Source: Acidobacteriota bacterium
Lineage (GTDB): Bacteria > Acidobacteriota > Vicinamibacteria > Vicinamibacterales > UBA2999
Length of the DNA stretch: 64,000 nt
Assembly (NCBI GenBank): GCA_021731165.1
Contig: JAKFXY010000029.1
Coordinates: 9,291 to 73,290, forward strand
Direction: 5' to 3'
This document shows positions 2,278 to 23,193 of the stretch, in pieces. Position 1 is the stretch's first letter. Every line of letters begins with the position of its first letter. The notes beneath the pieces are model-generated. The model was given only the letters and a program-made list of their open reading frames with translations, did no database searches and had not been told where the DNA came from. The position numbers and the translations under genes were made by a program.

Positions 2278-3164
2278 AACCGCGGATTGCCATCACTGCC
2301 GGAGATCCGGCGGGAATCGGACCCGAGATCGCGCGGAAGGCCGCCGGCGATCCGCGCGTGCTGGAGGTGTGCGACCCGGTGATCTACGGTCCGCCGGCCG
2401 GCGCCCGCTATGAGGCTGGTGTGCTCTCGGCCGAGGCCGGCCGCGCCGCGTACGACGCGGTCTGCGCCGCGTGCCGCGACGCGCTGGCGGGCACGATCGA
2501 CGCCATCGCGACGGCGCCGATCAACAAGCTCGCGTTCGCGCGCGCGGGGCTGCCATGGAAGGGTCACACCGATCTCCTGGCGCACCTTGCCGGGCGCGAG
2601 CGCGTGGCCATGATGTTCTGGTCGGCGCCGCTCAAGGTCGTCCTCGCGACCGTGCACCTTCCGCTGGCCGACGTCTCCCGCGCGCTGACCCGCGACGTTC
2701 TTGACGGCATCATCAACGTGACCGCGCTCGAGCTCCCACGATTTGGTATCACGCAGCCGCGGATCGCGCTGGCCGGCCTGAACCCTCACGCCGGCGAGCA
2801 CGGCGTGCTCGGAACAGAAGAGGAGCTCGTGCTCGGGCCCGCCGTCGCCGCGGCGCGCGGGCGAGGTGTTCGCATTGACGGCCCCTTTCCGGGGGACACG
2901 ATTTTCGGCCGCGCCGTGAGGGGCGAGTTCGATGTCGTGATTGCCTGTTACCACGACCAGGGGCTCATTCCGGTGAAACTGCTGGCGTTCGGCAAGGCGG
3001 TCAACGTGACGCTTGGATTGCCGATCGTCCGTACGTCTGTCGATCACGGAACAGCCTTCGACATCGCGGGTCGCAACCTCGCCGATCCTTCCAGCATGGT
3101 CGAAGCCGTGCTTCTCGCGGCTGCCCTCGCCACGCCGACGGCGAGCGAAGGCCCGCGCGGCTGA
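2274..3164 (+). CDS. pdxA: 4-hydroxythreonine-4-phosphate dehydrogenase
   Basis: In-frame GTG at 2274 overlaps the holB stop (GTGA). The upstream part of ORF 1755..3164 is Arg/Gly-rich shadow. Motifs AITAGDPAGIGPEI, GLNPHAGEHG, ACYHDQGLIPVK and TSVDHGTAFDIAG are present. Confidence 0.85.
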   Translation: MKPRIAITAGDPAGIGPEIARKAAGDPRVLEVCDPVIYGPPAGARYEAGVLSAEAGRAAYDAVCAACRDALAGTIDAIATAPINKLAFARAGLPWKGHTDLLAHLAGRERVAMMFWSAPLKVVLATVHLPLADVSRALTRDVLDGIINVTALELPRFGITQPRIALAGLNPHAGEHGVLGTEEELVLGPAVAAARGRGVRIDGPFPGDTIFGRAVRGEFDVVIACYHDQGLIPVKLLAFGKAVNVTLGLPIVRTSVDHGTAFDIAGRNLADPSSMVEAVLLAAALATPTASEGPRG

Positions 3165-5150
3165 TCAGCCGGCTTCGAAACAGGGCTGGCCCGTCTCGCG
3201 ATCGCGGCTGGCTGTTCGGTCTCGCTCCACCCAGACATCGAGCCACGTTCCGCGCCTGACTTCGAGTTTGCCCGTACGCCTGTAGTGAGCGCGCAGATAC
3301 GCGGCCAGTAGCGGGTAGTCGCTGGCGAACTCGACGTCAAAGCGCTCCCGCGGCTGCATCAGCGCAATCGGTACTGATTGGTGTGACCACCGCTCGATCG
3401 CCGCCTGCTGTGCCTCGACACTGCTGTAGAAGCGTGAGAAGAATGATTCTCGTCCCGCCGCGAAGAGGCGTTCGCTGAAGTAGGCAATCTCCGGGAGGTT
3501 GTCGCCCACCAGCAACCGATCGGTTGGGGCGCTGCAGCGGCGGATGTAGCCCACGGTGCGCCCGAGCTCGGCCTCGATGCCGGACGTGGTGTCGGGCAGG
3601 GCGCCGAGCCCATTCCAGACTTCGCGCCACTGCTCCCGCATTCCGTCCACGCCGTCGGTGACGCCTGTTCCGGTGATCTGCTGCGGCACGGTTCCGATAG
3701 CGCCCGCGCTCAGCGCGGTCAGCCCGACGGCTCCCGCGAGCAGCAGGTTCAGCATCGCGCGGAGCGGCCAGGGTCGCGAGCGCATCGATCGCGGTACGGC
3801 CGCCAGGAGCCATGAGCCCAGGATCACGAGGGGAGCGGAGGCGTCCGGCAACCGTTGCGGCGCTGGATTCCTGAGGAAGGCGACGACGAGCAGGAGGCCG
3901 AGAACGGAAACGGCCGCAATCACCGGGAACGGCACGTCGGGTTGGTCGAATGCGCGCCTCAGCGGCGGGACGACGAGTGAGGCAAGCGAGGCGACGACCA
4001 CGGCCCACGCCATCATGTACAGCCATGGGGCGGCATTCGCCTCGCGAAGCACGCCTGGCGCGACACGCCAGCGGAAGAGCCCGGTGCGTTCGAGCCAACC
4101 TGGTGCCGGCGCCGGGTCGGCGGTGATGGTAAATGCCTGGCGATCGATCCCGTCGGTGTCGGCGACTTGCGGGTCCGTCACGATGGCGGACAAGCGGCGA
4201 GGCGACGGATCTTCGATCGAATAGCCCCAGGTCTGAGCGCCCTCTCGCGCGGCCGGCTCACTGAGCCCCATCCCCTCCTCGGCTCGCTGGCGCGCCTCTG
4301 GCGTCACCGACTCGGCCCAGCGCACTCCGATCCGCGGTCGGGGTGGTGGAGGGGGATCGGCTCGCACGAGCCACGGCTGGGACCAGTCGATGTCGAAGCG
4401 CGCGGGCGGCGCCACGGTCCGCGCCGCCTCCTGGCGGGTGACTTCAAGACAGTTCCGCAGATACGCGATGAAGCCTCCGTGTTGCTCGGCGAAGACGACT
4501 CCGGGAAGGAGGCCGAGGAGCACGAATGCCGAGAACGTCATCAGCGGCTGCCGGACGCGCGGACGGTGCAGGAGCACGATGAGCACGCCTGACGAGATGC
4601 CCAGGAAGACGCCGTGGTCGTGCCGGAACAATGCCGCCACCACCACCGTCGTCGCCAGCAAGAGAAGCCGCCAGGTTGTCGGCCGCCTTGCATAGACCAC
4701 CATCGCCACCATCGCGAACGCGTAGGGGACGATTTTCGGATAGTTATAGAGTGCGGGGCCGAGGCCAATCGCGATGAGCGTCGCGAGCACCGCGGGCAGA
4801 ACGCGCTGCGCGAGCGTCGCCGCCACCCAGCAGAGCGCTATTGCTCCAAGAGCCAGGAGACCGATCGTGAGAAGGGCTTCACTGCGCAGCGTCGGACCCA
4901 GCGCTCGCTGAGCCAGCGCCGATGTCGTGTACAAGAGGGGCGGCCAGAGCGCTCCGAGCCCCGCGTCGGTGAAATCCCGGAGTGGGAGTTCGCCGTTCAG
5001 CACGGCTTCCGCGCGCGTCAGGTGCAGGAAGTGGTCGTTGTCGAAGCCGGCCAGCGACCCACCGAGGGTATTGAACCGGTAGAGGAATGCAGCCAGGCCG
5101 ACCGCGACGGCGACCAGAGCGATAACGAATGGATGTCGCGCGCGTCTCAC
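3165..5150 (-). CDS. Orphan polytopic membrane protein with a C-terminal soluble domain (family M1, paralogue of 25926..27593)
   Basis: 661-aa ORF with a GTG start and many hydrophobic helices. The N-terminal FDNDHFLHL...LPLRDFTD loop and the C-terminal domain (APTDRLL...AAGRESFF...QSVPIAL...AAYLRAHYR) are colinear with ORF 25926..27593. No family recognised. Confidence 0.7.
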   Translation of the reverse strand: MRRARHPFVIALVAVAVGLAAFLYRFNTLGGSLAGFDNDHFLHLTRAEAVLNGELPLRDFTDAGLGALWPPLLYTTSALAQRALGPTLRSEALLTIGLLALGAIALCWVAATLAQRVLPAVLATLIAIGLGPALYNYPKIVPYAFAMVAMVVYARRPTTWRLLLLATTVVVAALFRHDHGVFLGISSGVLIVLLHRPRVRQPLMTFSAFVLLGLLPGVVFAEQHGGFIAYLRNCLEVTRQEAARTVAPPARFDIDWSQPWLVRADPPPPPRPRIGVRWAESVTPEARQRAEEGMGLSEPAAREGAQTWGYSIEDPSPRRLSAIVTDPQVADTDGIDRQAFTITADPAPAPGWLERTGLFRWRVAPGVLREANAAPWLYMMAWAVVVASLASLVVPPLRRAFDQPDVPFPVIAAVSVLGLLLVVAFLRNPAPQRLPDASAPLVILGSWLLAAVPRSMRSRPWPLRAMLNLLLAGAVGLTALSAGAIGTVPQQITGTGVTDGVDGMREQWREVWNGLGALPDTTSGIEAELGRTVGYIRRCSAPTDRLLVGDNLPEIAYFSERLFAAGRESFFSRFYSSVEAQQAAIERWSHQSVPIALMQPRERFDVEFASDYPLLAAYLRAHYRRTGKLEVRRGTWLDVWVERDRTASRDRETGQPCFEAG

Positions 5151-5175: not shown

Positions 5176-5204
5176 TTGACCGGTGTTCATAAAGGCCATA
5201 GGAT
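5176..5204 (+). promoter_or_regulatory. Candidate sigma70-type promoter (TTGACC-17 nt-TAGGAT) for the 5217..13394 operon
   Basis: TTGACC at 5176-5181, a 17-nt spacer, then TAGGAT at 5199-5204, ending 12 nt upstream of the GTG at 5217. It lies in the 66-bp divergent gap 5151..5216. Sequence pattern only. Confidence 0.3.
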
Positions 5205-5216: not shown

Positions 5217-6425
5217 GTGAAGATCGATATTGACAGCACCCTGGCTGCCGAAGGCGGAACCGCGACGCGCGCCACGTTTCTTCCCTTTCATCAACCGACG
5301 ATCGATGCAGATGACGAGCGGGCTGTTCTCGAGACGCTCCGCTCGGGCTGGTTGACAACTGGGCCCAGGACGAAGGCATTCGAGCGTGAGCTGGCCGCGT
5401 ACACCGGGGCGGCCCACTGCGTGGCGCTCAACTCCTGCACAGCCGCACTTCACCTGGCGCTCGAGGCGGTCGGCGTCGGTCCGGGCGACGAGGTCATCAC
5501 CTCGCCGATCACGTTTGCGTCCACGGCCAACGTGATCGTCCACCGCAACGCGCGGCCGGTGTTCGTCGATGTCGATCCGGAGACGCTCAACATCGATCCC
5601 CAAGCGCTGGCGCACGCGGTGACGCCCAGGACCAAGGCGATCATCCCCGTGGACTTCGCTGGCCAGCCCTGTGATCTGGACGAAGTGATGGCCATCGGCC
5701 GCCAGCATGGGTTGACGGTCATCGAAGACGCAGCGCACGCGATCGGCGCTGAATACAAAGGGCGCCGTGTCGGCAGCGTGGCCGACATGACCTGCTTCTC
5801 CTTTTACGCGACCAAGAACATCACGAGCGGTGAGGGCGGCGCCCTGACGACCGATCGCGCCGACTGGGCGGAGCGCATCCAGGTGATGGGGCTCCACGGC
5901 ATCAGCCGCGATGCCTGGAAGCGCTACAGCGCCGAGGGCTACAAGCACTGGGACATCGTCGCGGCCGGCTACAAGTACAACATGTTCGATCTCCAGGGCG
6001 CGCTCGTGCTGTCGCAGTTGGGGAAACTGGACACGTTCCACGCGCGGCGTGTGGCGCTCAAGGCGCGGCTCGATGCGGGACTGCGCGATCTTCCGGAGCT
6101 CGCCTTCCCGGCGGAGCGGCCCGGCCGCAAGCACGTGTACCACCTGTATCCCGTGATCGTGCGCACCGAGGCGCTGACGGCCGACCGCGACACCATCATG
6201 GCGGCTATCCAGGCGGAGAACATCGGCATCGGCATTCACTTTCGCGCCGTCCACCTGCACCCGTTCTACACGGAGACGTTCGGCTTCACGCGCGGCATGT
6301 TTCCGCATGCGGAGTACTACTCGGATCGCACCATTTCCTTGCCGCTCTATCCGCGCATGACCGACGCCGAGGCGGATGACGTCGTGGCGGCGGTGCGGAA
6401 AGTGATTGCCAGGTATCGCCGCTAG
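5217..6425 (+). CDS. DegT/DnrJ/EryC1/StrS-family PLP-dependent sugar aminotransferase
   Basis: 402 aa. FLPFHQPTIDADDERAVLETLRSGWLTTGPRTKAFE, NSCTAALHLAL, ITFASTAN and FSFYATKNITSGEGGAL (catalytic Lys context) are typical of ArnB/PglE/DesI-like enzymes. Confidence 0.85.
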   Translation: MKIDIDSTLAAEGGTATRATFLPFHQPTIDADDERAVLETLRSGWLTTGPRTKAFERELAAYTGAAHCVALNSCTAALHLALEAVGVGPGDEVITSPITFASTANVIVHRNARPVFVDVDPETLNIDPQALAHAVTPRTKAIIPVDFAGQPCDLDEVMAIGRQHGLTVIEDAAHAIGAEYKGRRVGSVADMTCFSFYATKNITSGEGGALTTDRADWAERIQVMGLHGISRDAWKRYSAEGYKHWDIVAAGYKYNMFDLQGALVLSQLGKLDTFHARRVALKARLDAGLRDLPELAFPAERPGRKHVYHLYPVIVRTEALTADRDTIMAAIQAENIGIGIHFRAVHLHPFYTETFGFTRGMFPHAEYYSDRTISLPLYPRMTDAEADDVVAAVRKVIARYRR

Positions 6426-7559
6426 ATGACCATCGCCGCCGAGAACGCGCCGACGACGTACGGGCTTCGCCGCGGAGCGGAGGAATTCCCGCTCATGCTG
6501 GTCATCTCGATCATCTACCCGTGCAACTTCGGCTGCCCGAACTGCCCGTACACGGATGCCAACTCCGAGATCCGGCAGTTCTATCACTCGCACGACGGCG
6601 ATCTCTTCAAGGTGGACCTCTGGAACCGCTTGGCCGTCGAGTGCGGTGAGTACGGTGCCTGGATGCGCTGCACCGGTGGCGGCGAGCCGATGCTGCACCC
6701 GCACATGGTGGACATGATCGAGTTCGCCAAGGCGAAGGGCGCCCGCGTGTGGATGAACACCAACGGCAGCATGTTCGGCCCGACGCCGGTGCTCCGCCGC
6801 AAGCTCGAGCGGGTGATTGCGGCCGGGATCGATCTGATCGAGTTTTCCATGGACGCCGGCGACGCCGAGACCTACGCCGCCGTGCGGCCTCCGCACCGCG
6901 GCGGGCCGCCGCGTGATCCTCAGAAGTGGTGGGACAACGCCGTCAGCAACGTGCGGGCCGCGCTGGAGCTTCGGCGCACCCTGAAGGCCACCACGCGCAT
7001 TGTCGTATCGCTCATCCGGCAGCAGCAGATCGAGGGCAAGATCGATGCGGCCATCGACTTTTGGATGAAGGACGTCGGGGTCGATGAGGTCATCACCCGC
7101 AAGTTCCTGACGTGGGACGACAACACGCACATCCAGATGGGCAAGGCCCTCGATCCGCACCTCTACAAGGGACTGCCCGTGCAGAAGGCCGAGCCGTGTG
7201 TCTGGCCATTCGAGCGGCTGAACGTGGACACGCTCGGACGTATCGCGCTCTGCGGCCAGGACATCTCGTTTCGTACGGCGGAGTTGTTTCCCAATGCGAA
7301 CGACGTCTCCATCAAGGAGATCTGGCAGGGCGAGCGGTTCAACTGGTACCGGAAGCTGCACCTCGAAGGACGCGGCGCCGAAGCGTTTCCCTGCCGTGGC
7401 TGTTCAGCCTGGTTTGCCGGCATCAGGGACTGGGAGCATGGATGGCTGAAGGTCCTCAAGACTTCAGGCGATCACCTGCGCGAGGTCATGCAGAAGGACC
7501 TCGGCGCCGAGGTGAAGATCTACCAGCCGGAGTTGCAACTGCCGAAGACCGAGCCCTGA
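6426..7559 (+). CDS. Radical SAM enzyme with a C-terminal Cys-rich (SPASM/twitch-like) domain
   Basis: 377 aa. CNFGCPNC (CxxxCxxC) lies near the N-terminus, followed by a GGGEP motif, then a C-terminal cysteine cluster (CVWPF...LCGQD...CRGCSAW). The ATG directly follows the aminotransferase TAG stop. Confidence 0.8.
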   Translation: MTIAAENAPTTYGLRRGAEEFPLMLVISIIYPCNFGCPNCPYTDANSEIRQFYHSHDGDLFKVDLWNRLAVECGEYGAWMRCTGGGEPMLHPHMVDMIEFAKAKGARVWMNTNGSMFGPTPVLRRKLERVIAAGIDLIEFSMDAGDAETYAAVRPPHRGGPPRDPQKWWDNAVSNVRAALELRRTLKATTRIVVSLIRQQQIEGKIDAAIDFWMKDVGVDEVITRKFLTWDDNTHIQMGKALDPHLYKGLPVQKAEPCVWPFERLNVDTLGRIALCGQDISFRTAELFPNANDVSIKEIWQGERFNWYRKLHLEGRGAEAFPCRGCSAWFAGIRDWEHGWLKVLKTSGDHLREVMQKDLGAEVKIYQPELQLPKTEP

Positions 7560-7581
7560 TCCCGGGGGCTTGCGCCACTGC

Positions 7582-9063
7582 ATGCCTGACGCCTCCTTCT
7601 ATCCAGAGCTGGGCACGCGATTGGAAGCCCTCGTCCGCACGGCATACGGCGTGCTCATGCTCGCCACCTTGCTGCAGGCTCTGCCGGAGGCGCGCCGGTT
7701 CTTCCTCAGCGAACGTTGGGGCGGCTATGCGAAGTCCACGCGCGATGTAGACGCTGTCCAGAACCCAGTCGTCATGCCGCTCTTCGTCGCGGCGTGGTTC
7801 CTCGCTGCCGCGGCACTGGCTACCGGGTGGTGGAGTCCCTGGCCGGCCATCCTCAACCTGGCCTTCTGCCGGTACTTTTTCATCCATATGCGCTGGAAGG
7901 GGATTCTGCGCGGGATGGGTGCGCCCGGCTTCATCGCCTATTGGGTCGGCCTCGTCGTGTGTCTCTTCGAGGTCACGGCACGCTTCGCGCCGGAGGTCAG
8001 GCCGCTGGCGCTGCTCGTGGCACAGGTCGATCTCGCGTGCATCATGCTCACGGCCGGCATCTACAAGTTCGCGGCCGGCTATCCGCAGAACCACGGCATG
8101 GAGCTCGGCCTCTGCAATCCGATGTGGGGCTACTGGTGGCGCTGGTACATCAAACGGCGCCCCGCGAGCCCGGTCTTCTGGACGATGAACCAACTGGCGT
8201 GGGGCACGGAAGTCGTGGCCGCGCTCCTGATGCTCGTGCCGGCGACCCGGGAGATCGGAGGGCTGCTCATCCTCGTCAGCTTTGCCTTCATCGCCACGCA
8301 GATTCGCCTTGGGTTCCTCTGCGAGATGGTGATGGCCGGCAGCCTGATCTTCATCCCGCCTGACGGCTGGATCGCAGGCTGGTTCCCCTGGATCGGCTGG
8401 ATCGGCGGCGCCGCGCCAGCGGTTGCCGGCGAGGCGGGGTCGGCCGGCGCCGTCCTTCGCGTGGCACTGTGGACCTACCTGGCTCTGCTGCCGCTGGCGT
8501 ACGGGGGCCTCTACTACAACTTCTACGCGCGGCGGCGGCTGCCGGCGCTTGTGCAGCGCGTCCTCGAACGCTACACGAACTTCTTTGGCCTCATCCTCTG
8601 GCGCGTGTTCTCGGTGGACCTGGTGAACTTCTTCATCAGGCTCTCGCGCAGGACGGGGGAGCGGCTCACGGCGATTGCGCCGCTCGGAGACCTCCACGCG
8701 TCCGGCTACCGCGGCGCGTGGTCGCGCTTCAACCACGTCGGCGAGATGATCTGCCTGACCTCGCTCTTCACCACGCTCAAGTACTATCCGAGCAACGACG
8801 TGCTCTTCCAGGAGCGGCTCCGGCGCTACGCGCGGACGCTCCCTCACGAGGCTGGAGAGACGCTGGTCTTCGAATACGTGAGCGTCGTCAAGCGCGACAC
8901 GCGGTTTGATTGGGTGCCTGTCGGCGAATACCAGGTGGATCCCGCCAACGGTGCCATCACCACGCGCTGGATTGATCCGGAATTCTCACCCCACGCCGGG
9001 CATCGGGATTCTCCGCTGCACGAAGGCGACGTGCCCGGCAGCTACGTGCCGGCGAGTCGTTAG
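7582..9063 (+). CDS. Orphan polytopic membrane protein with a ~170-aa C-terminal soluble domain
   Basis: ORF 7570..9063. I prefer the ATG at 7582 over the TTG at 7570. Multiple hydrophobic helices, Trp-rich loops (WGYWWRWY) and a soluble tail. Family not recognised. Confidence 0.6.
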   Translation: MPDASFYPELGTRLEALVRTAYGVLMLATLLQALPEARRFFLSERWGGYAKSTRDVDAVQNPVVMPLFVAAWFLAAAALATGWWSPWPAILNLAFCRYFFIHMRWKGILRGMGAPGFIAYWVGLVVCLFEVTARFAPEVRPLALLVAQVDLACIMLTAGIYKFAAGYPQNHGMELGLCNPMWGYWWRWYIKRRPASPVFWTMNQLAWGTEVVAALLMLVPATREIGGLLILVSFAFIATQIRLGFLCEMVMAGSLIFIPPDGWIAGWFPWIGWIGGAAPAVAGEAGSAGAVLRVALWTYLALLPLAYGGLYYNFYARRRLPALVQRVLERYTNFFGLILWRVFSVDLVNFFIRLSRRTGERLTAIAPLGDLHASGYRGAWSRFNHVGEMICLTSLFTTLKYYPSNDVLFQERLRRYARTLPHEAGETLVFEYVSVVKRDTRFDWVPVGEYQVDPANGAITTRWIDPEFSPHAGHRDSPLHEGDVPGSYVPASR

Positions 9064-9070
9064 CAAGCCG

Positions 9071-10849
9071 ATGTGCGGGATTGCCGGTGTGTTCGGGCGG
9101 GAAGACCGGGAAGGCGTCGAGCGGATGCTCGGCACGCTGTCCCATCGCGGGCCTGACGATCGGCATCTCGTGTCCGGGCCGCGCTTCACGATGGGGGCAA
9201 CGCGGCTCAGCATCATCGACGTCGAGGGCGGCCGACAGCCGCTGACGAACGAAGACGGCACGGTGACCGCGTCTCAGAACGGGGAGCTCTACAACTTCCC
9301 GGTGTTGCGCCCGCTGCTCCTCGAGCGGGGGCACCGGTTTCACACCCACACGGACACCGAGCTGCTCCCGCACCTCTGGGAAGACTGGGGCACGCGGCTG
9401 CCCGAGCGGATTGACGGGATGTTCGCCGTGGCCGTCTGGGACGACCGGCAGCAGACGGGGCTTCTGGCGCGCGACCGGATGGGCAAGAAGCCGCTCTACT
9501 ACTGGGAGCATGACGGCGCGCTCTATTACGCGTCCGAGCTGAAGGCGCTGCTCTCCCTTCCGTCGTTCCACCGGCGGCTCAATCTCGAGGCGCTGCACCA
9601 CTATCTGGGTTACAAGCAAGTACCGCATCCGTTGACGATCTTCGAGGGCGTGCGCATGCTGCCGCCCGCCCATCGTCTCGTGTATCGTCCGGGTGCTCCT
9701 CTTGTCACCGAGCGCTACTGGCGTCTGTCGTTCGCGCCACGGACTGGATCCGTGCCCGATGAGCGCGAGGTCGTGGACGAGTTGATCGAGCGGTTGAAGG
9801 TGGCCGTGCGCCGGCGGCTGATGTCGGATGTGCCGGTGGGCTTCTTTCTGAGCGGAGGCCTCGACTCGTCACTGACGACAGCGCTGGCGGCTGAAGTGGC
9901 ACCGGGGCGAGTGAAGACCTTCACGCTGACCTACGGCGGCGATTCCTCCACCGAGGGGAAGGAGCGTGACCGCCACTGGGCACGGTGGGTGGCCGAGCGC
10001 TGGGGCACCGACCATCACGAAGAGACGATTTCCTTCGCCGACTATCCGGCGAGCATCCGCCGGATCCTGACGGCCTTCGACGAACCGTTCGCGGGCGTCG
10101 TGTCCACCTGGTTCCTGGCCGAGGCGATGGCGAAGCATGTCAAGGTGGCCATCGCCGGTGACGGCGCCGACGAGCTGTTCGGCAGCTATCTCTCGCACCG
10201 CATGGCGTTTTCCGAGGCGGCGAAGGGAGAGGAGCCGGACTGGCAGTGGCGGGCGCGTCTGTTGGTGATGTCCGACGAGGAGAAGTCGCTACTGTATACG
10301 CCGGACGTGCGGGCCGCGCTCGCCGGCACGTCGACGACCGGCCATTTACGAGCCGCGTTTTCGGACCTGACCGCCGAGGATCCGCTCAACCGCGTCCTCG
10401 AGGCCGAGTTCGGCGGTATCTTCCCTGACCAGGTGCTGACCTTCGTCGATCGGCTCTCGATGGCGCACTCGCTGGAGGTGCGCAACGCGTTTCTCGACAC
10501 CGAGTTCGTGGAGTTCGTGGCCGGACTTCCAGGCAGCCTGAAAGTCCACGATGGCGAAACGAAGTACATACTGAAGCAGGCGGCGGCGCGCTACTTTCCG
10601 GAGCCGATGGTCCGAAGGCCGAAGGAAGGGTTCATCATGCCGATCACCCAGTGGATGCTCGGCGATCTCCAACCGTGGGTACGTGAGACACTCTCGCCCG
10701 AGCGGCTCCGTCTGCACGGCCTCTTCGAGCCCGCGCGTGTGCGGGAGCTCATCGATCGCCTTCAGGCGCCGGGGGCCGATCATTTCACCGTCAATCGCGT
10801 GCTGGCGCTGGCGATCTTTCAGGAATGGTACGAGCTGTATCTGAGCTAG
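9071..10849 (+). CDS. Asparagine synthase (glutamine-hydrolysing) family amidotransferase, copy 1
   Basis: Starts MCGIAGVF (N-terminal Cys nucleophile) at the ATG at 9071, inside ORF 8906..10849. Motifs RGPDD, RLSIIDVEGGRQP and the PP-loop FLSGGLDSS are present. Confidence 0.85.
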   Translation: MCGIAGVFGREDREGVERMLGTLSHRGPDDRHLVSGPRFTMGATRLSIIDVEGGRQPLTNEDGTVTASQNGELYNFPVLRPLLLERGHRFHTHTDTELLPHLWEDWGTRLPERIDGMFAVAVWDDRQQTGLLARDRMGKKPLYYWEHDGALYYASELKALLSLPSFHRRLNLEALHHYLGYKQVPHPLTIFEGVRMLPPAHRLVYRPGAPLVTERYWRLSFAPRTGSVPDEREVVDELIERLKVAVRRRLMSDVPVGFFLSGGLDSSLTTALAAEVAPGRVKTFTLTYGGDSSTEGKERDRHWARWVAERWGTDHHEETISFADYPASIRRILTAFDEPFAGVVSTWFLAEAMAKHVKVAIAGDGADELFGSYLSHRMAFSEAAKGEEPDWQWRARLLVMSDEEKSLLYTPDVRAALAGTSTTGHLRAAFSDLTAEDPLNRVLEAEFGGIFPDQVLTFVDRLSMAHSLEVRNAFLDTEFVEFVAGLPGSLKVHDGETKYILKQAAARYFPEPMVRRPKEGFIMPITQWMLGDLQPWVRETLSPERLRLHGLFEPARVRELIDRLQAPGADHFTVNRVLALAIFQEWYELYLS

Positions 10850-11658
10850 CCGACGTGGCCTCGTCTGCCGACGTCCCGCCGGGCACACCGCGCGTGACAT
10901 TCGGCCTGTCGATGCTCGGATGGGCGCTCAACGAACAGGACAACATCGCCGGCTACATCGACCGCGCGGGCGCCTTCCTCGATGCGCTGACGGATCGCTA
11001 CGAGCTCGTGCTCATCGACGACGGGAGCACTGACAGGACGTGGGAGATCGTCACCGAGGCGCGGCGAACCCGCCCGTGGTTGAAGCCGTACCAGAACAAG
11101 GGCAACCGCGGCTCCGGCTACAACACCAAGCGCGCGCTTTCGCTGGCCACCGAGGACTATGTCTTCTGGCAGACCGTGGACTGGTCGTACGACATCCGGC
11201 AGCTCGCCGCCGCACTCCCGCAACTCGCGGAGGTGGACGTGCTGCAGGGCGTTCGCATCGGCACGACGTCGGCGACGCGTATGATCACCGAGCGCTCCGA
11301 CAACCCTTACAAAGGGCTGGTGTCGGTCGTCAATTACCAGCTGATCCGTCTGCTCTTCGGGCTTCCCTTCGGGGACTTCCAGAACGTGACGGTTTACCCC
11401 AGGCGGTTGATTCAAAGCGTGACGCTGGAGACGGAGAGCTCGTTCACCAACGCCGAGTGTCTGCTCAAGACCTGGTGGCGTGGCGCGACGTTCCGCGAGG
11501 TCCCGGTTCCCTTCATCAAGCGCGAGCGCGGGCTCGGCACCGGCACGAAGCCGCGCGCCATTCTGAAAGCCATCTCCGACATCCTGGGCTGGTGGCTCCG
11601 TTGGATTGTTCTCGGGCAGCGCGACGCCCGCGGGCGCGGACGCATCATTCCACGATGA
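10825..11658 (+). CDS. Glycosyltransferase family 2 (soluble, DPM1/GtrB-like catalytic domain)
   Basis: 277 aa with YELVLIDDGSTDRT and a NKGNRGSGYN-type motif. It overlaps the upstream asnB-like 3' end by 25 nt. The exact start is uncertain. Confidence 0.7.
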   Translation: MVRAVSELADVASSADVPPGTPRVTFGLSMLGWALNEQDNIAGYIDRAGAFLDALTDRYELVLIDDGSTDRTWEIVTEARRTRPWLKPYQNKGNRGSGYNTKRALSLATEDYVFWQTVDWSYDIRQLAAALPQLAEVDVLQGVRIGTTSATRMITERSDNPYKGLVSVVNYQLIRLLFGLPFGDFQNVTVYPRRLIQSVTLETESSFTNAECLLKTWWRGATFREVPVPFIKRERGLGTGTKPRAILKAISDILGWWLRWIVLGQRDARGRGRIIPR

Positions 11659-12350
11659 CGGTTGTCGTCCTTCAGCCGGGCTACCTGCCGTGGCTCGGCT
11701 TCTTCGATCAGCTTCGCCGGGCGGACGTGTTCGTCGTCTATGACGATGTGCAGTACGACACGCATGGGTGGCGGAACCGCAACCGCATCAAGACCGCGAA
11801 CGGCCCGATCTGGCTGACCGTGCCGGTACGGCACAGCGGGCTGGGTCAGCCGCGGATTCTCGATATCGAAATCGATCGCCGCACGCCGTGGGCCAGGAAG
11901 CATCTCGCGAGCATCCGGCAGTCGTATGCCGCCGCGCCGTACCTCCGGACCTGCATGCCGGCACTCGAGGAGTTGCTGCAGCGCCCATGGACGCATCTGG
12001 TGGACCTCGATCTCGCCCTCGTCGATCTGCTTGCCGGGTGGCTCGGGTTGACGCGGCGGATCGAGCGTGCGTCGCGGCTCGGGATCGAGGGGGGGCAGAA
12101 CCAGCGGCTCCTGAACATCTGCCGCCATTTCGGCGCCACCACCTATGTGTCGGGCGACGCCGCGCGTGACTACCTCGACGTGCCGCTCTTCGAGCAGCAC
12201 AGCATCGCCGTTGAGTGGCAAAGCTTCGAGCACCCGGTCTACCCCCAGCTTCACGGTGCGTTCGTGCCGTATCTCTCGGCGCTCGATCTCGTGTTGAACT
12301 GCGGTGATGATGCCGGGCGGGTGCTGGAACGCGGGAAGTCTCTGTTGTAG
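11655..12350 (+). CDS. WbqC-like family protein, copy 1
   Basis: ATG at 11655 overlaps the upstream stop (ATGA). MTVVVLQPGYLPWLGFFDQL...VYDDVQY...WRNRNRIKT...WLTVPV...YVSGDAARDYLD...LSALDLVLNCG matches the WbqC-family pattern as I recall it. Confidence 0.75.
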   Translation: MTVVVLQPGYLPWLGFFDQLRRADVFVVYDDVQYDTHGWRNRNRIKTANGPIWLTVPVRHSGLGQPRILDIEIDRRTPWARKHLASIRQSYAAAPYLRTCMPALEELLQRPWTHLVDLDLALVDLLAGWLGLTRRIERASRLGIEGGQNQRLLNICRHFGATTYVSGDAARDYLDVPLFEQHSIAVEWQSFEHPVYPQLHGAFVPYLSALDLVLNCGDDAGRVLERGKSLL

Positions 12351-12362
12351 AGTGAGTGCCAC

Positions 12363-13394
12363 GTGACCACGTATTTGATCACCGGCGGCGCTGGATTCAT
12401 CGGCAGTAACTTCGTCCACTACCTCAGAAAGACCTATCCGGAGGATCGGATTCTCGTCCTCGATCTTCTGACGTACGCCGGAAGTCTCGACAATCTGCCG
12501 CCGGCCGTCGGGCCCGACGCCGGGCGCATCCAGTTCTGGCATGGCGACGTCCGGAACGCCTCGCTCGTGGACTCGCTGGTGGAGCAGTCGGACGTCGTGG
12601 TGCACTTCGCAGCCGAGACGCACGTCACGCGCTCGATCTACGACAACTACCATTTCTTCGAGACCGACGTCCTCGGCACGCAGGTCGTCGCCAACTCGGT
12701 GGTGCGGCACATCGCCAACGTCGAGCGGTTCATCCACGTCTCGACGTCCGAGGTCTACGGCACCGCGCAGGGAGCGAAGATGGACGAAGACCATCCGCTC
12801 ATGCCGATGAGTCCCTATGCGGCCGCGAAGGCTGGGGCCGATCGTCTCGTCTACTCGTACTTCGCCACCTACAACGTCCCGGCAATCATCGTGCGGCCGT
12901 TCAACCAGTTCGGGCCGCGCCAGCACCTGGAAAAGGTGATTCCGCGCTTCATCACGAGCTGCCTGCTCGACGAACCGCTCCGGATTCACGGCGACGGCTC
13001 GGCCGCGCGCGATTTCACCTACGTCGAGGACACGTGCCGCGCGATCGACGCCCTGGCGCATTCCGGGCGCGAGCATGTCGTGGGTGAGGTGATCAACCTC
13101 GGCACCGGGGTGAGTCTGTCCCTCTCTGAGCTGGCTTCCAAGATCGTCAGGCGCATGAACAAGCCGGAGACGCTCATCAACTATGTCGGCGACCGTCCCG
13201 GCCAGGTGTTTCGCCACACGGCGGACGCGGCCAAGGCGGAGCGACTGCTGGGATGGAAACCGGAGATCTCCTTTGACGAAGGTCTGGACAGGACCGTCGA
13301 GTGGTACATGGCCAACAGGCCGTGGTGGGAGAAGCAGCTCTGGATGCGCGAGATCCCGATCATCACGAAGGCGGGAAAGCGCGAGCTGCACTGA
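12363..13394 (+). CDS. rfbB: dTDP-glucose 4,6-dehydratase (SDR family)
   Basis: 343 aa with ITGGAGFIGSNF, HFAAETHVTRS, STSEVYG, the YxxxK motif (SPYAAAKAGAD) and RPFNQFGPRQ. Confidence 0.85.
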   Translation: MTTYLITGGAGFIGSNFVHYLRKTYPEDRILVLDLLTYAGSLDNLPPAVGPDAGRIQFWHGDVRNASLVDSLVEQSDVVVHFAAETHVTRSIYDNYHFFETDVLGTQVVANSVVRHIANVERFIHVSTSEVYGTAQGAKMDEDHPLMPMSPYAAAKAGADRLVYSYFATYNVPAIIVRPFNQFGPRQHLEKVIPRFITSCLLDEPLRIHGDGSAARDFTYVEDTCRAIDALAHSGREHVVGEVINLGTGVSLSLSELASKIVRRMNKPETLINYVGDRPGQVFRHTADAAKAERLLGWKPEISFDEGLDRTVEWYMANRPWWEKQLWMREIPIITKAGKRELH

Positions 13395-13435: not shown

Positions 13436-13975
13436 CTAGGGCCGCGTGTCTGACGCCAGTCTGGCGAGAAGATACACGTCTACCGGCATGTCGCCGCTCC
13501 ACCTGTCCCCGCGCAACAGCCCCTCCGCACGGAATCCGGCCTTCTCGAACGCCCGTTGCGCCCTCGGGTTGATGGCCAGCACGTAGGCGTAGACACGGTG
13601 GAGGCCCAACGCCTGGAACGCCCAGGTGGCGAGCAGATCGATCGCCTCGCTGCCGAGTCCGCGATCCCGCGCCGTGACGTCCCCCATCACGACCCGGATC
13701 TCCGCGCGCCGGTGTCTCGGGTCGATGTTCCAGAGCCAGACATTGCCGACGTGGTGGTCGCCATCGATCGTCTCGGCCGCGAAGTAGCGGCAGTCCTCGC
13801 GGTTGCGCAGTCCCTCGAACCAGCGGCGGTGACCATCGGGCTCGACCGGTGTGACGCGATCCATCAGCCGCATCAGTTCGGCGTCGTTGGCCCATGTGAG
13901 AGTAGCGTCCAAGTGCCGTTCGGCGAGCGGCGTCAGCCGAATCCGTGGCTGAGCGGCGGGAGACGCGGCGGTCAT
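13436..13975 (-). CDS. GNAT-family N-acetyltransferase
   Basis: 179 aa. The RGLGSEAIDLLATWAF motif-A context and NPRAQRAFEKAGFRAEG are typical of RimJ/RimL-like GNATs. The ATG overlaps the upstream stop (ATGA at 13972-13975). Confidence 0.8.
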   Translation of the reverse strand: MTAASPAAQPRIRLTPLAERHLDATLTWANDAELMRLMDRVTPVEPDGHRRWFEGLRNREDCRYFAAETIDGDHHVGNVWLWNIDPRHRRAEIRVVMGDVTARDRGLGSEAIDLLATWAFQALGLHRVYAYVLAINPRAQRAFEKAGFRAEGLLRGDRWSGDMPVDVYLLARLASDTRP

Positions 13976-16866
13976 TCAGGCATCCTAGCGGTGCCGCGCC
14001 CTGAGCGCCACAGGATGAGGCCGACCACGGCGAGCCCGAGGAGGCTCAACTGCGCGCCTCGGCGCAGCGTCGGCGATGCGAACACGAAGTCCACGATGTG
14101 CTCGCCCGCGGGGACGCGCACGCCCTGCAGCGCCCCATCGGTCAGGACAATGGCGGTTGTCGTGCCGTCGATGCTGGCCTGCCACCCCGGATAGAACGAC
14201 TCGCTCAGCACGAGGAAGCCGCCGCCAGGGCTCGTCACGGCCACGCGAATCCGCCCGTCGCCGATCGAGCGAACGGTCGCCGAGCCACCGTCCGTCGCCT
14301 GTGCCGTCCCTCGCCCCGCTGCTGTTTCGGATGTAGGCCCAGGCCCCCTCTCCAAATTCAGTCCCGGCTCGGATCCCGACCTGGACCCTGGTTCGGGCTC
14401 CGGCTCGACGAGCGCGGTAAAGGCAGGGTTGAACCGGCGGCCGTCGGGCAGGAGCGAGTAGTGCACGGCGATGTCGCGCTCGCGGTCGGTGACCGGCAGC
14501 ACTTCGCCGGCGAGCCACGCGCGTGCGAGCGCACGGCGGTTCTCGAATGCGACATACGGCTGCTCGCCTGGGCGGCTCTCGTCGCGGCGGCGATCGGTGA
14601 ACCTCGACGTCTCGAACCGTCCGGCCGGACGCCACCGGCCGGTATCCCCCAGGAGCGCTCCGGCGATGGTCTGCGGTACGAAGCGGCCGCCGTCATCGAT
14701 CGCCGTCATCCGGTCGATCATCAACCCGCCTCCCATTTCCCCTCCCACCAAAATCTCCAGCCGTCCACCGCGCACCGGCACGGGAAGGTCGATGCGGGTC
14801 ACGTAGCTGTAGCGATCGTCCGAAGGATCGAACACCGTCCCGAGGTCGTGCGCGGCCCTGGCGAGCAGCGTCGGGTCCTTCAGCCTCTCATCGGCCACGT
14901 CTGTTCCGGCGCGCAGCGACTGCTCGTAGACGCCGCCGGATGCGTCAATCACCTTGATCGTGGCCACCGGCGCGCCTTGCCTCGCGTTCTCCGCGCAGAC
15001 GAGGTGAGTGGACAGGGCAATGCTGTGGACGGTGATCTCCGCCGGAAGTGCGTAGGTCGAGCCTCGCGGGTATTGCTGCCCGCATTCCTGTGGTCCTACC
15101 GGCAGCGAGAGCGGCGTGGATGCCCACGTGATGCCGTGCCGCTCGAGCGTCTCGCCGATGTCGAAGTCTTCCGCGTGTACGAAGACATACTTCACCGCCA
15201 TCAGGTCCAGGGCGGCGTCGTGATGCGACATGAGCGTCGGCTCGACCGACCCGTTGGTGCCCATGCGTGCGAGCTCGCCGTAGCGGGCCAGCAACATCGG
15301 CCCGTATCCACCGGCAATCGGAATCTCCCAGCGGCGGGCGAAGAGCGCCGGCGCCACCGCGTCGAGGTGCGTGCCGTCCGGGGCAAGAAGGCGCTGATGT
15401 AAAGGAGCCGCGGCGTCCGCCAGCCGGCGAGCGTGGACGCTGGGTTCGCGAGCGGCTTCGGCGGAAATGAGCGGAAGCTCGAGGCCGGCCAGCGTCATCG
15501 AATAGGGGAGCGCGTAGACGAGGTCGAGGCCGACGACGAGCAGAAGCGCGCCGGTCCAGACGCGCACGGCCCGCTTCGAGGCGAATCCAGCCGCGGCAAT
15601 CACGGCGGCGAGCATGATCAGCAACTGCGTCCAGATATCGCCGCGCCACAGCGGAAGTTGCCAGGGCAGGCCGGGCCGTTCATCGAACGAGAAGGCGCTC
15701 GGCCAGTGGGTCATCGTCATGGCCCCAGCGACGAGCGCCAGCATCATCACGACGCCGGCCGCCCAGGCGATGCGGCGGGAAACCTCACCACGCTGCACGG
15801 CTGCCACGCCGATACCGGCGAGCGTCGTGAAGCCGAGTGCCGCGAAGACCAGATGCCGCGCGGCGACCCTGAAGCGATCGTACGCCGGCAGCTCGAAGAG
15901 TAGCCGCTGCACGGGCGTGGCATCCCCCACACCCACGAGTAGCACGCCGATCGTGACGATCACCCAGAACAGCACACGCCAGTTGCGGAAAAGGCGGCTC
16001 ACCGCCACGAGCGCGAAGAGGAGCGTGAGCAGCCCGACGTAGGTAGGGGCCTCGCGGCCTTCGTGGAGGATCGTCGGAAAGACGATCGTGAGCATCTGTG
16101 CCGGCGTGTTCGCGTGCCCCGCGAACGCGTCGTACCCGACCGTCTGCCGTGCCGTGTAGAGGCTTGCCTCCAGCATCGGAAGCGTCTTGACGAGCGTCAG
16201 GAGGCCGCCAAGCGTCGCCATCGCCGGCAATGCCACGTAGTAGCGCCAGCTCGCGCGCTCGGCGAGGCCGCCCGCGACGGCGTACAGGGCACAAACGCTG
16301 CCGAAGTAGAGAAAGACCTGAGGGTTGCCGGCGAGAAAGCAGACGGCGAGAGCGAGCGCGCCGATGGCGATCCATCGCCACGGCCGAGGGGTCCGAAGGC
16401 GATCGACGGCCAGGAGGATGAGCGGGAACCAGGCGATGGTGTTGAGCAGTCCGAAGTGGGGGAGCCGCTCCATCATCGCTTCTGAGAGCGCGTAGGCCAG
16501 CCCAGAGAAGGCCGCGGCGGTGCGCGACCGCGTCAGCGAGTAGACATAGGCATACGCGCAGCAACCGGCGATCGCATAGACGGCAATGATGAGCGCCGTC
16601 CACGATCCGAGCAGTCGAAAGAGCAGCTGCACGGGATAGAGGGACGCATCGCCCGGATCGGCGAACGCCGGCATTCCTCCGAACTCAAACGCGGACCAGA
16701 CGGTGATCGGCGAGAGGAACTGCGGCAGGAAGTATTCGTACAAGTCGGAGTCGGCCACGTAGGCGTGCCGCAGAAACGACTGCGCGAAGAGCCAGCCGAA
16801 GACGAGCGCGAAGGCGCCGGCCACATAGACCGCGTGGCGCCACGGACGAGTGTCAGGCGTGTCCAT
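13972..16866 (-). CDS. YfhO-family polytopic membrane protein (putative GT-C glycosyltransferase)
   Basis: 964 aa. The N-terminal half is polytopic. The C-terminal beta-rich region ends in the ESFYPGWQASIDG...VPAGEHIVDFVF signature shared with YfhO-type proteins. It is a paralogue of 1..1163 and of the N-terminal domain of 55895..59251. Confidence 0.7.
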   Translation of the reverse strand: MDTPDTRPWRHAVYVAGAFALVFGWLFAQSFLRHAYVADSDLYEYFLPQFLSPITVWSAFEFGGMPAFADPGDASLYPVQLLFRLLGSWTALIIAVYAIAGCCAYAYVYSLTRSRTAAAFSGLAYALSEAMMERLPHFGLLNTIAWFPLILLAVDRLRTPRPWRWIAIGALALAVCFLAGNPQVFLYFGSVCALYAVAGGLAERASWRYYVALPAMATLGGLLTLVKTLPMLEASLYTARQTVGYDAFAGHANTPAQMLTIVFPTILHEGREAPTYVGLLTLLFALVAVSRLFRNWRVLFWVIVTIGVLLVGVGDATPVQRLLFELPAYDRFRVAARHLVFAALGFTTLAGIGVAAVQRGEVSRRIAWAAGVVMMLALVAGAMTMTHWPSAFSFDERPGLPWQLPLWRGDIWTQLLIMLAAVIAAAGFASKRAVRVWTGALLLVVGLDLVYALPYSMTLAGLELPLISAEAAREPSVHARRLADAAAPLHQRLLAPDGTHLDAVAPALFARRWEIPIAGGYGPMLLARYGELARMGTNGSVEPTLMSHHDAALDLMAVKYVFVHAEDFDIGETLERHGITWASTPLSLPVGPQECGQQYPRGSTYALPAEITVHSIALSTHLVCAENARQGAPVATIKVIDASGGVYEQSLRAGTDVADERLKDPTLLARAAHDLGTVFDPSDDRYSYVTRIDLPVPVRGGRLEILVGGEMGGGLMIDRMTAIDDGGRFVPQTIAGALLGDTGRWRPAGRFETSRFTDRRRDESRPGEQPYVAFENRRALARAWLAGEVLPVTDRERDIAVHYSLLPDGRRFNPAFTALVEPEPEPGSRSGSEPGLNLERGPGPTSETAAGRGTAQATDGGSATVRSIGDGRIRVAVTSPGGGFLVLSESFYPGWQASIDGTTTAIVLTDGALQGVRVPAGEHIVDFVFASPTLRRGAQLSLLGLAVVGLILWRSGRGTARMPE

Positions 16867-18820: not shown

Positions 18821-18827
18821 CGGCCGC

Positions 18828-19871
18828 CTACCGGCGCGCGTCCGACGGCGCGCCGCCCTGGACGCGGCTCACCTCGGTGCGCACGAGGTAGGGCTTCGCC
18901 TGGCCTGGGAAGAAGTACAGCCGGACGACGACCTCCGAGACCAGGCCGAAGAGCAGGAATTGGACACCGCTGACGAAGAGCACCAGCGCGAGCAGGAACC
19001 ACCCGCTGCGGTCGCGCACGACCGGCACGCCGTAGGCCAGGCTGATGAACCCGAGTGTGCCCATGATGAGCCCAGCCGCGGCGAGGCTGGCCAGCGCCAG
19101 ACGCCCGAACACACGAATCGGCCGGTCCAGGTACTTCACGTAGAACACCAGGAAGGCGATGTCGAGCAGTACGTTGAACGTGCGCCCAATCCCGTAGTTC
19201 GAGGTGCCGACAGGGCGTTCGACGTTGCGGATCGGCAGCTCGGTGATCCGCGCGCCGATGTTCTTCGCGAGCACGGGGATGAAGCGATGCTGTTCGCCGA
19301 GGAGCTGCAGCTGGCGGACCACGTCGCCGCGATACGCCCGGAACGTCGTGCCGACATCGTGCACGGTCAGCCCCGTCAGCTTCCGCACCAGCCAGTTGGC
19401 GGCGGCCGACGGCCAGCGGCGGATGATGCCTTCCTGCCGCTCGGCGCGCCAGCCGCACACGACGTCATAGCCATCCTCGATCTTTGCCAGGAACTGTGGA
19501 ATGTCCTCGGGGAAGTGCTGGAGGTCCGCGTCCATGGAGATCACGATGTCGCCGCGCGCGTGGTCGAAGCCGACCTGTAGAGCGGCTGTCTGCCCATAGT
19601 TGCGCCGCAGCGACACGAGCGACACACGGGGGTCCGCGATTCCGAGTTTTCCGGTGACGCCGCCGGTCTCATCGGTGCTCCCATCGTCCACGACGACGAA
19701 CTCGAAGTCGTATCGCGACGCAAGCGTGCGGGTCACTTCGTCGAGCCGGCGCATCAGCTCCAGAAGGGTTTTCGCCTCGTTGAAGACCGGGAGGACGATG
19801 CTGACGAGCGGCCGGGCACCGGTCGACACGTCGGGCCCGTCCGCAGCGGGTGCGTTGATCAATACGGGCAT
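18828..19871 (-). CDS. GT2 polyprenyl-phosphate glycosyltransferase (ArnC/GtrB/CsbB-like) with two C-terminal TM helices
   Basis: Start taken at the internal ATG at 19871 (MPVLINAP...), 50 bp after the upstream stop. Motifs VSIVLPVFNE, FVVVDDGSTDET, ISMDADLQH and NYG, followed by two hydrophobic C-terminal helices. Confidence 0.8.
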   Translation of the reverse strand: MPVLINAPAADGPDVSTGARPLVSIVLPVFNEAKTLLELMRRLDEVTRTLASRYDFEFVVVDDGSTDETGGVTGKLGIADPRVSLVSLRRNYGQTAALQVGFDHARGDIVISMDADLQHFPEDIPQFLAKIEDGYDVVCGWRAERQEGIIRRWPSAAANWLVRKLTGLTVHDVGTTFRAYRGDVVRQLQLLGEQHRFIPVLAKNIGARITELPIRNVERPVGTSNYGIGRTFNVLLDIAFLVFYVKYLDRPIRVFGRLALASLAAAGLIMGTLGFISLAYGVPVVRDRSGWFLLALVLFVSGVQFLLFGLVSEVVVRLYFFPGQAKPYLVRTEVSRVQGGAPSDARR

Positions 19872-23186: not shown

Positions 23187-23193
23187 AGGGCAC

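Follow-up and report, generated by a model that had tools for sequence, protein, structure and literature searches.

A BtrN-like twitch radical SAM enzyme family in a putative amino-sugar cassette of envelope-glycan loci

To our knowledge, nearly all known examples of radical S-adenosylmethionine (SAM) chemistry on nucleotide sugars come from antibiotic pathways (DesII, BtrN, AprD4 and BlsE). DesII, an enzyme of C4 deoxygenation in desosamine biosynthesis, works with the aminotransferase DesI after a 4,6-dehydratase, and the pathway partner of BtrN, BtrS, is a DegT-family aminotransferase. Radical SAM epimerases of the twitch or SPASM type that act on aminoglycoside sugars are also known (NeoN and HygY); in these enzymes a conserved cysteine thiol is the hydrogen donor. 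In envelope glycans, the Arn pathway (ArnB, the formyltransferase domain of ArnA, ArnC and ArnT) carries out the 4-amino-4-deoxy-L-arabinose (Ara4N) modification of lipid A. Here we describe a radical SAM enzyme encoded in a 64,000-nucleotide stretch of DNA from an Acidobacteriota bacterium of the Vicinamibacterales (contig JAKFXY010000029.1, positions 9,291 to 73,290; the window). Our best explanation, to which we give a probability of about 0.4, is that this is a BtrN-like twitch enzyme in an envelope-glycan amino-sugar cassette and that it carries out a BtrN-type oxidation.

The gene for the enzyme lies in an operon of seven tightly packed + strand genes (positions 5217-13394). The first gene (5217..6425, +) encodes a 402-amino-acid (aa) pyridoxal phosphate-dependent aminotransferase of the DegT family, and the second (6426..7559, +) encodes the 377-aa radical SAM protein. 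The two genes abut: the TAG of the first is at 6423-6425 and the ATG of the second is at 6426-6428 (0-nucleotide gap). An earlier reading made without database searches (the sequence-only reading) had pointed to this junction, and the sequence bears it out. The five genes that follow encode a polytopic membrane protein, an AsnB-type amidotransferase, a GT2 glycosyltransferase, a WbqC-family protein and a 4,6-dehydratase. Upstream of the aminotransferase gene is a sigma-70-like promoter match (TTGACC-17-TAGGAT; 5176..5204, +), which is a consensus match only and weak evidence. One other locus (L066) and one database protein (P0271) are 97-100% identical to the window.

We found that the product of 6426-7559 is, by its profile matches, a member of the radical SAM superfamily. 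It scored 42.0 bits against Pfam Radical_SAM (PF04055; cut-off 29.5) and 29.8 bits against Pfam SPASM (cut-off 21.5). We aligned 52 members of the family, with identity down to 24% (alignment A1). Seven cysteines (C33, C37, C40, C258, C276, C323 and C326) were invariant in all 52. The first three make up the motif CNFGCPNC (CX3CX2C; 6522..6545, +) of the SAM-binding [4Fe-4S] cluster. The other four have the spacing C258-X17-C276-X46-C323-X2-C326 (7197..7403, +); the Pfam SPASM match covers residues 258-326, and no cysteine follows C326. This pattern leaves room for just one auxiliary [4Fe-4S] cluster. A full SPASM domain, with the seven-cysteine motif ..C..C..CX2CX5CX3C..C and two auxiliary clusters, was considered and rejected, as there are only four C-terminal cysteines. 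The protein nevertheless matches the Pfam model because that model spans the twitch half as well. The twitch model NF033640 matched 52/52 family members, and the family profile scored 57 bits against BtrN residues 161-250. By these comparisons, the auxiliary domain is a twitch, homologous to the C-terminal domain of BtrN. Thus, the sequence-only reading had recognized CNFGCPNC correctly, but the C-terminal cluster that it called SPASM is a four-cysteine twitch and not the seven-cysteine kind.

BtrN was the closest relative of known structure. When the family profile from alignment A1 was run against all PDB sequences, BtrN was the top match (E 1.3e-28), and its alignment took in the core at profile positions 23-145 as well as the auxiliary domain at 223-313. 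With the single sequence instead of the profile, the match to BtrN had an E-value of only 1.4e-3. Other enzymes matched in the generic core, including MoaA (E 1e-15), BlsE (E 5e-15) and PqqE (E 8e-13). DesII (8hzv) matched with E 8e-11 over core residues 125-302 only, below BtrN, MoaA, BlsE, PqqE, the tetraether lipid synthase GDGT-MAS, SkfB and viperin-type chains. The suspicion that the enzyme would differ from DesII itself is therefore upheld. Among NCBIfam and Pfam models, no curated NCBIfam family came near its cut-off (best 58 bits, cut-off 380). Judged from these searches, the enzyme belongs to an unnamed family whose nearest characterized relative is the aminocyclitol dehydrogenase BtrN.

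The likeness to BtrN extends beyond the core. Both enzymes combine CX3CX2C with a single-cluster twitch of the form CX17-18C...CX2C; in each case the partner is a DegT-family aminotransferase and the setting an amino-carbohydrate pathway. There are also differences. The two share no common curated family, and the window protein, at 377 aa, carries extra inserts and a C-terminal extension relative to the 269-270 residues of the solved BtrN chains. The substrate of BtrN, a 2-deoxy-scyllo-inosamine dehydrogenase, is an aminocyclitol, whereas that of the window system is presumed to be a nucleotide-linked 6-deoxyhexose. BtrN comes from an antibiotic cluster (butirosin), and the window gene from an envelope-glycan cassette of diverse, mostly uncultured bacteria.

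The cysteine pattern also bears on a different outcome, in which a radical epimerase like NeoN or HygY would abstract hydrogen from a ring carbon and return hydrogen on the opposite face. Pfam and NCBIfam scans of the cassette revealed no cupin-type 3,5-epimerase, which is consistent with such an activity. However, alignment A1 has no invariant cysteine beyond the seven cluster ligands, and we consider epimerization improbable.

We found that the radical SAM gene is widespread and is usually accompanied by the same partners. There were 1,188 homologues at E up to 1e-3 in a large protein database; the best 120 of these 1,188 were 72-90% identical to the window enzyme and were labeled at the source just "radical SAM protein". 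Identity within the family was 66-90% over about ten phyla. A library clustered at 50% identity held very few full-length representatives, and the next relatives were 24-46% identical. A scan of species-representative genomes gave 76 loci, from Acidobacteriota, Planctomycetota, Methylomirabilota, Binatia, Melainabacteria, Sericytochromatia, Prochlorococcus, Vulcanimicrobiota, Latescibacterota, Bdellovibrionota and others. Cyanobacteriota are represented by non-photosynthetic as well as marine lineages. We mapped the window proteins onto these loci by tblastn and counted the partners in the 53 that reach 15 kb or more. Since the flanks extend no further than 10 kb to either side, the resulting shares are lower bounds. 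The AsnB-type enzyme was present in 85% of the 53 loci, the membrane protein in 81%, the DegT aminotransferase in 68%, the 4,6-dehydratase in 62%, WbqC in 60% and the GT2 glycosyltransferase in 30%. The radical SAM gene was the best conserved of the cassette (about 70% identity between phyla).

Direct abutment of the aminotransferase and radical SAM genes was less common (9/53 loci, all Vicinamibacterales-like); elsewhere the cassette aminotransferase gene comes after the dehydratase gene. In many genomes, the position between the radical SAM and membrane protein genes is a variable slot for a formyltransferase like the N terminus of ArnA, a PseH-like GNAT or a methyltransferase. The aminotransferase and radical SAM enzyme do co-occur in most loci, and the sequence-only reading had described the operon correctly as far as it went, but it had overlooked three regular members of the cassette: WbqC, the AsnB-type amidotransferase and the membrane protein. 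A complete cassette with unambiguous ORFs (open reading frames) is present in a marine single-cell genome of Prochlorococcus sp. AG-436-J02 (L063 7664-18421; 32% GC). It is preceded by a PNP_UDP_1 gene (similar to methylthioadenosine/5'-deoxyadenosine nucleosidases) and a short formyltransferase gene.

Distant relatives of the radical SAM enzyme are fused to enzymes of the same kinds. Full-length fusions of Formyl_trans to radical SAM were found in three proteins (P0127, P0134 and P0192; the neighborhood of P0134 was read from P0393, a cluster member of identical length), and a fourth (P0137) has the Formyl_trans_C part only. Two proteins are GNAT-radical SAM fusions (P0129 and P0253), one is a DegT-radical SAM fusion (P0245) and one is a WbqC-radical SAM fusion (P0248). 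Genes near relatives of 27-46% identity encode DegT, WbqC, dehydratase-type short-chain dehydrogenase, AsnB and GNAT proteins, and one distant locus (L081) has a gene for a GalU-like nucleotidyltransferase. On plasmid pDCAR1 of Solidesulfovibrio carbinolicus DSM 3852 (L082; NZ_CP026539.1, 10796-14635) the gene order is DegT, radical SAM, methyltransferase and WbqC, with asnB upstream. The radical SAM protein there is 27% identical to the window enzyme, and its adjacency to DegT recurs independently. With the 68% co-occurrence and the DegT-radical SAM fusion, this recurrence takes the link between the two genes beyond chance. Fusions and recurrent neighborhoods at such depth indicate that the radical SAM enzyme shares a pathway with an aminotransferase, an N-capping enzyme and WbqC. 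Taken as genomic association, this is strong evidence for a shared amino-sugar-nucleotide pathway, and the enzyme very probably acts on the amino-sugar nucleotide of the cassette. This lends good support, from cassette, fusions and distant neighborhoods, to the proposal of the sequence-only reading that a surface-glycan locus encodes radical chemistry on a 4-amino-4,6-dideoxy sugar nucleotide.

Three of these distant loci (L077 12966-13907, L080 10987-11955 and L081 2865-3788) contain, beside the fused or primary gene, a second, unfused paralogue annotated as radical SAM/SPASM; in L080 there is a B12-binding radical SAM enzyme as well.

The enzymes that would make the substrate point to a 4-amino-4,6-dideoxyhexose. 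The aminotransferase matched Pfam DegT_DnrJ_EryC1 with E 7.8e-133. Its highest NCBIfam scores were below the family cut-offs: 392 bits for ArnB (NF008658; cut-off 631) and 389 bits for PseC, followed by 227 bits for WecE and 194 bits for DesI (TIGR04427; cut-off 650). The closest solved match was ArnB (1mdo; 342 bits, E 3e-101), and the cassette aminotransferases of L063, L077 and L081 were also closest to ArnB/PseC. We therefore describe it as an ArnB/PseC-like, presumed sugar-nucleotide 4-aminotransferase. It was also matched by 2c81/5w70, which represent the DegT family of BtrN's partner. The product of the last gene (12363..13394, +) clearly has the fold and family of a 4,6-dehydratase (RmlB-like short-chain dehydrogenase/reductase), judged by its match to TIGR01181 (dTDP-glucose 4,6-dehydratase); the score, 334.6 bits, is just below the cut-off of 365.1. 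That the operon ends in a 4,6-dehydratase is thus correct, but the assignment to dTDP-glucose falls short of the curated cut-off, and the cassette neighbors point to UDP. (NDP, UDP and dTDP denote nucleoside, uridine and deoxythymidine diphosphate.)

The capping enzymes point in the same direction as the aminotransferase. The slot formyltransferase is closest to the N-terminal formyltransferase domain of ArnA, the slot GNATs have PseH as their nearest match, and for the nucleotidyltransferase of L081 it is GalU. Because of these affinities and those of the aminotransferase for ArnB/PseC, a UDP-linked substrate seems more likely than the dTDP-linked one first suggested. The substrate would be a UDP-linked 4-amino-4,6-dideoxyhexose with its amine capped by a formyl, acetyl or methyl group. 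In the window, the likely N-capping enzyme is a PseH-like GNAT N-acetyltransferase encoded convergently with the operon (13436..13975, -), whose homologues elsewhere sit between the radical SAM and membrane protein genes.

The resemblance to the Arn pathway is partial. The aminotransferase is nearest ArnB, the formyltransferase is nearest the N terminus of ArnA, the GT2 protein (10825..11658, +) is, from Pfam and NCBIfam matches, weakly similar to ArnC and to dolichyl-phosphate hexose transferases, and large polytopic membrane proteins flank the window operon. However, no Arn model reaches its cut-off, the sugar formed via a 4,6-dehydratase would be a 6-deoxyhexose and not a pentose, and nothing in the Arn pathway corresponds to the radical SAM, WbqC, AsnB or GGCX-fold proteins.

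These results also bear on whether the pair follows the logic of DesI and DesII, as the sequence-only reading had proposed. In that case, abstraction of H-3 and elimination of ammonia would give a 3-keto-4,6-dideoxy product, a net deoxygenation at C4. Some features fit: the aminotransferase gene directly precedes the radical SAM gene here and in a distant relative, the operon includes a 4,6-dehydratase, a 4-amino-4,6-dideoxyhexose nucleotide is a plausible substrate in both systems, DesII is detectable by the family profile, and the initial H-3 abstraction would be the same as in a BtrN-type reaction. Other features are opposed to it. DesII has no twitch domain, and its match is to the generic core. 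The aminotransferase is remote from DesI (194 bits, compared with 392 for ArnB). The N-capping enzyme kept in the cassette and the formyltransferase and GNAT fusions indicate that the amine is retained. Finally, the family conserves an auxiliary cluster, which, as far as we know, a redox-neutral radical elimination does not need. We regard DesII-type deamination as improbable, and the DesI/DesII analogy is not sustained.

We found that the membrane protein of the cassette (7582..9063, +; 493 aa) is predicted to fold like GGCX, the vitamin K-dependent γ-carboxylase (GGCX/HTTM fold). Its start was fixed by a 100% identical 493-aa NCBI protein, and all of its 1,084 homologues were labeled hypothetical. 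At the sequence level, nothing matched in NCBIfam, in Pfam (E up to 10) or, by profile, in the PDB. A model made with AlphaFold2 from 46 homologues had a pLDDT (predicted local distance difference test) of 82.6 and a pTM (predicted template modeling score) of 0.86. In a Foldseek search of the PDB with this model, the top 16 matches were all human GGCX. Fifteen of them had E up to 1e-4 (best E 1e-6), probability 1.0 and a TM-score (template modeling score) on the query of 0.43-0.49; the sixteenth had E 0.027 and TM 0.36. All non-GGCX matches were noise (E of at least 0.5, TM of at most 0.17). The relationship to HTTM/GGCX is thus seen by fold search alone, as sequence searches gave nothing.

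The model is the basis for saying that the protein has the GGCX membrane fold. The invariant residues A158, K162 and Y167 are spaced like Ala214, Lys218 and Trp223 of GGCX, a likeness of spacing only. Lys218 is the catalytic base of GGCX, and Ala214 and Trp223 have been described with it (PMC12647623). The only characterized bacterial homologue of GGCX is MloH, whose reaction is the carboxylation of an aspartyl residue in an intermediate of malonomycin. The 493-aa protein thus shares its predicted fold with GGCX, alone among solved structures, and resembles it in the A/K/Y(W) spacing, but it has no sequence-level match to GGCX. Associations of HTTM with DCC1 are known, and one related locus has a gene for a 494-aa Pfam-less protein beside a DCC1-like gene.

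The AsnB-type enzyme (9071..10849, +) appears to be an intact glutamine-dependent amidotransferase. It begins with MCGI, keeping the N-terminal cysteine nucleophile of the glutaminase, and scored 422 bits against asparagine synthase (TIGR01536; cut-off 267). Formation of an amidine by this enzyme was set aside, since acetamidino sugars are made by PP-loop enzymes of the WbuX/PseA type and are not known to be made by AsnB-type enzymes. Its best named family was TIGR03108 (eps_aminotran_1), with 483 bits against a cut-off of 817. Amidotransferases of this kind (WbpS and WbqG) amidate sugar carboxylates to uronamides (PMC7468200). The cassette enzyme shares with WbpS and WbqG this best NCBIfam match and the glutaminase nucleophile, but it falls far under the family cut-off, and the operon shows no sign of a pathway to uronic acids.

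The WbqC protein (11655..12350, +; Pfam E 3.3e-78) had no solved homologue in the PDB, either by single sequence or by a 12-member profile, and we found no functional study of it in the literature. Its name comes from the E. coli O121 locus, where the 4-amino-4-deoxyquinovose (Qui4N) bears N-acetylglycine (PMC7685785).

These partners raise the possibility that a carboxyl-bearing appendage, and not a ring hydroxyl, is the target or product of the radical SAM enzyme. WbqC would acylate or aminoacylate N-4, the radical SAM and GGCX-fold enzymes would modify or carboxylate the added group, and AsnB would amidate the carboxylate. This would account for an eps_aminotran_1-like amidotransferase in a pathway whose 6-deoxy sugar offers no carboxylate. 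It is also in keeping with MloH acting on an aspartyl residue of a small molecule, with the N-acetylglycine of Qui4N at the locus that gave WbqC its name, and with the linkage data, in which no three genes keep together more tightly than those of the radical SAM enzyme, the GGCX-fold protein and AsnB. However, distant relatives keep WbqC and DegT but not the GGCX-fold protein, WbqC is without a detectable homologue of solved structure, and the order of the steps is entirely our inference. We consider an appendage unlikely, though somewhat less so than deamination or epimerization.

In a further variant, the cassette would make a so far undescribed branched or carboxamide-bearing amino sugar by the joint action of radical SAM chemistry, GGCX-type carboxylation and amidation. 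The twitch enzyme would oxidize an N-capped UDP-4-amino-4,6-dideoxyhexose to a keto sugar. The GGCX-fold enzyme, using a base derived from menaquinol, would then carboxylate the activated alpha-carbon or, in a manner like that of MloH, an acyl or aminoacyl side chain, and the AsnB-type enzyme would trap the labile acid as a carboxamide. There is perhaps a slim chance that this route is correct in full.

Our results are most consistent with a BtrN-type oxidation in the following pathway, for which we infer the substrate, its UDP carrier, the order of steps and the dehydrogenase chemistry. The 4,6-dehydratase would convert an NDP-hexose, most likely a UDP-hexose, to a 4-keto-6-deoxy sugar, from which the ArnB/PseC-like aminotransferase would yield a 4-amino-4,6-dideoxy sugar. 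The amine would be capped by a formyl-, acetyl- or methyltransferase. The cytoplasmic radical SAM enzyme would then take a hydrogen atom from the amino-sugar nucleotide, at a carbinol carbon adjoining the amino-bearing carbon, and the auxiliary cluster would accept one electron from the substrate radical, leaving a keto-amino-sugar. This product might be elaborated further by WbqC, the AsnB-type amidotransferase and the GGCX-fold enzyme, and the ArnC-like GT2 protein might then load it onto polyprenyl phosphate for export.

We favor the BtrN-type reaction because BtrN is the nearest characterized relative and is itself paired with a DegT-family aminotransferase, because the conserved auxiliary cluster suits removal of an electron and an oxidative outcome, because there is no extra invariant cysteine like those of the radical epimerases, and because the amine seems to be kept and capped, which counts against deamination. 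By analogy with BtrN, the specific dehydrogenase chemistry, oxidation of the carbinol beside the amino carbon, is a tentative assignment and much less secure than the assignment of the enzyme to the amino-sugar pathway.

Several observations weigh against this explanation. The relationship to BtrN is remote by sequence, and twitch and SPASM enzymes catalyze many different reactions. A single-sequence AlphaFold2 model of the radical SAM protein had a pLDDT of 34. The keto product has no obvious dedicated consumer in the cassette, and a BtrN-type oxidation does not explain what WbqC, AsnB and the GGCX-fold protein do. In particular, an AsnB of the WbpS/WbqG kind requires a carboxylate, which is absent from a 6-deoxy sugar, so the pathway as proposed still lacks a part. 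In NCBIfam, the highest sub-threshold scores of the radical SAM protein were for cofactor and peptide maturases (for example, a tungsten-cofactor maturase and PqqE), in the generic N-terminal core only. In 7 of the 53 loci, an orthologue of about 70% identity had no cassette gene within 10 kb.

The last two observations might indicate that the radical SAM enzyme, the AsnB-like enzyme and the membrane protein form a module for maturation of a peptide (similar to RiPPs, peptides that are made on ribosomes and modified after translation), a cofactor or a lipid that happens to neighbor glycan genes. The seven loci lack sugar genes, one lineage has the enzyme beside an MqnA-like gene, and AsnB homologues include lasso-peptide cyclases. 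However, the maturase matches reached at most about 58 bits, where the cut-offs are 170-650, the relatives are fused to formyltransferase, GNAT, DegT and WbqC domains, and AsnB retains its cysteine nucleophile and passes the asparagine synthase cut-off. The gaps flanking the radical SAM gene (0 and about 20 nucleotides) have no room for a precursor-peptide gene. The fusions, the cassette and the scores far below cut-offs speak against the grouping with peptide or cofactor maturases that would have told against sugar chemistry, and we think a non-sugar role very improbable.

Some orthologue loci have distinctive neighbors. In a metagenome-assembled genome labeled "bacterium" (L034 8741-11098), a 72%-identical orthologue directly follows an MqnA-like (VitK2_biosynth) menaquinone gene, with no cassette within 10 kb; this neighbor is noteworthy beside the vitamin K-carboxylase fold of the usual partner. 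The ORF layout of L071 is similar to that of L034, and L071, L040 and L068 (labeled Vulcanimicrobiota) are also without the cassette. At another locus (L058 4636-16114), a 68%-identical orthologue lies in a very different setting, amid spermine-synthase-like, amine oxidase, pentapeptide-repeat, ATP-grasp, O-methyltransferase and GT87 genes.

The surroundings of the window operon contain further glycan genes. To the left, the housekeeping genes for the DNA polymerase III delta' subunit (1204-2277) and PdxA (about 2280-3164) mark the edge of the glycan region. Between them and the operon, and divergent from the aminotransferase gene, is a gene for a 661-aa polytopic membrane protein without a Pfam family (3165-5150, -). 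Its position is kept in the related Vicinamibacterales loci L001, L003 and L066, and the protein may be a glycan-transferring enzyme. To the right, a convergent operon (13436-20030, -) encodes the PseH-like GNAT, a 964-aa YfhO-like membrane protein, a second AsnB-type amidotransferase and a second GT2 protein.

A second amino-sugar gene set, without a radical SAM enzyme, follows at 19921-25918. It comprises genes for a PhyH-family iron/2-oxoglutarate (Fe/2OG) dioxygenase (19921-20895, -), a second WbqC (20885-21580, +), a GT2 protein (within 21007-22566), a methyltransferase (22563-23186), a PglD-like hexapeptide acyltransferase (23011-23853) and a second DegT aminotransferase (within 24596-25918). 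Thus, the pairing of WbqC and DegT also exists apart from the radical SAM enzyme. It is a speculative idea that the PhyH dioxygenase is an O2-dependent counterpart of the radical SAM enzyme.

Literature searches on radical SAM enzymes with WbqC, DegT or asparagine synthase, on twitch domains with sugar nucleotides and on BtrN with polysaccharides gave nothing relevant. We found no paper describing a widespread family of BtrN-like twitch enzymes in an envelope-glycan cassette with a GGCX-fold partner, and we believe that it has not been previously described. Solidesulfovibrio carbinolicus is a cultured strain and offers a possible experimental handle on the wider family. If the carboxamide route were true, it would bring together three chemistries not previously seen together in glycan biosynthesis and would give the first physiological role of a bacterial vitamin K-carboxylase homologue in cell-envelope biogenesis. 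More generally, the cassette provides a testable physiological context for the bacterial homologues of vitamin K-dependent carboxylases, of which only MloH has a known function. Solving the reaction would assign a function to the radical SAM family and to its GGCX-fold partner, each with more than 1,000 homologues, and to WbqC, and would probably reveal a new bacterial sugar.

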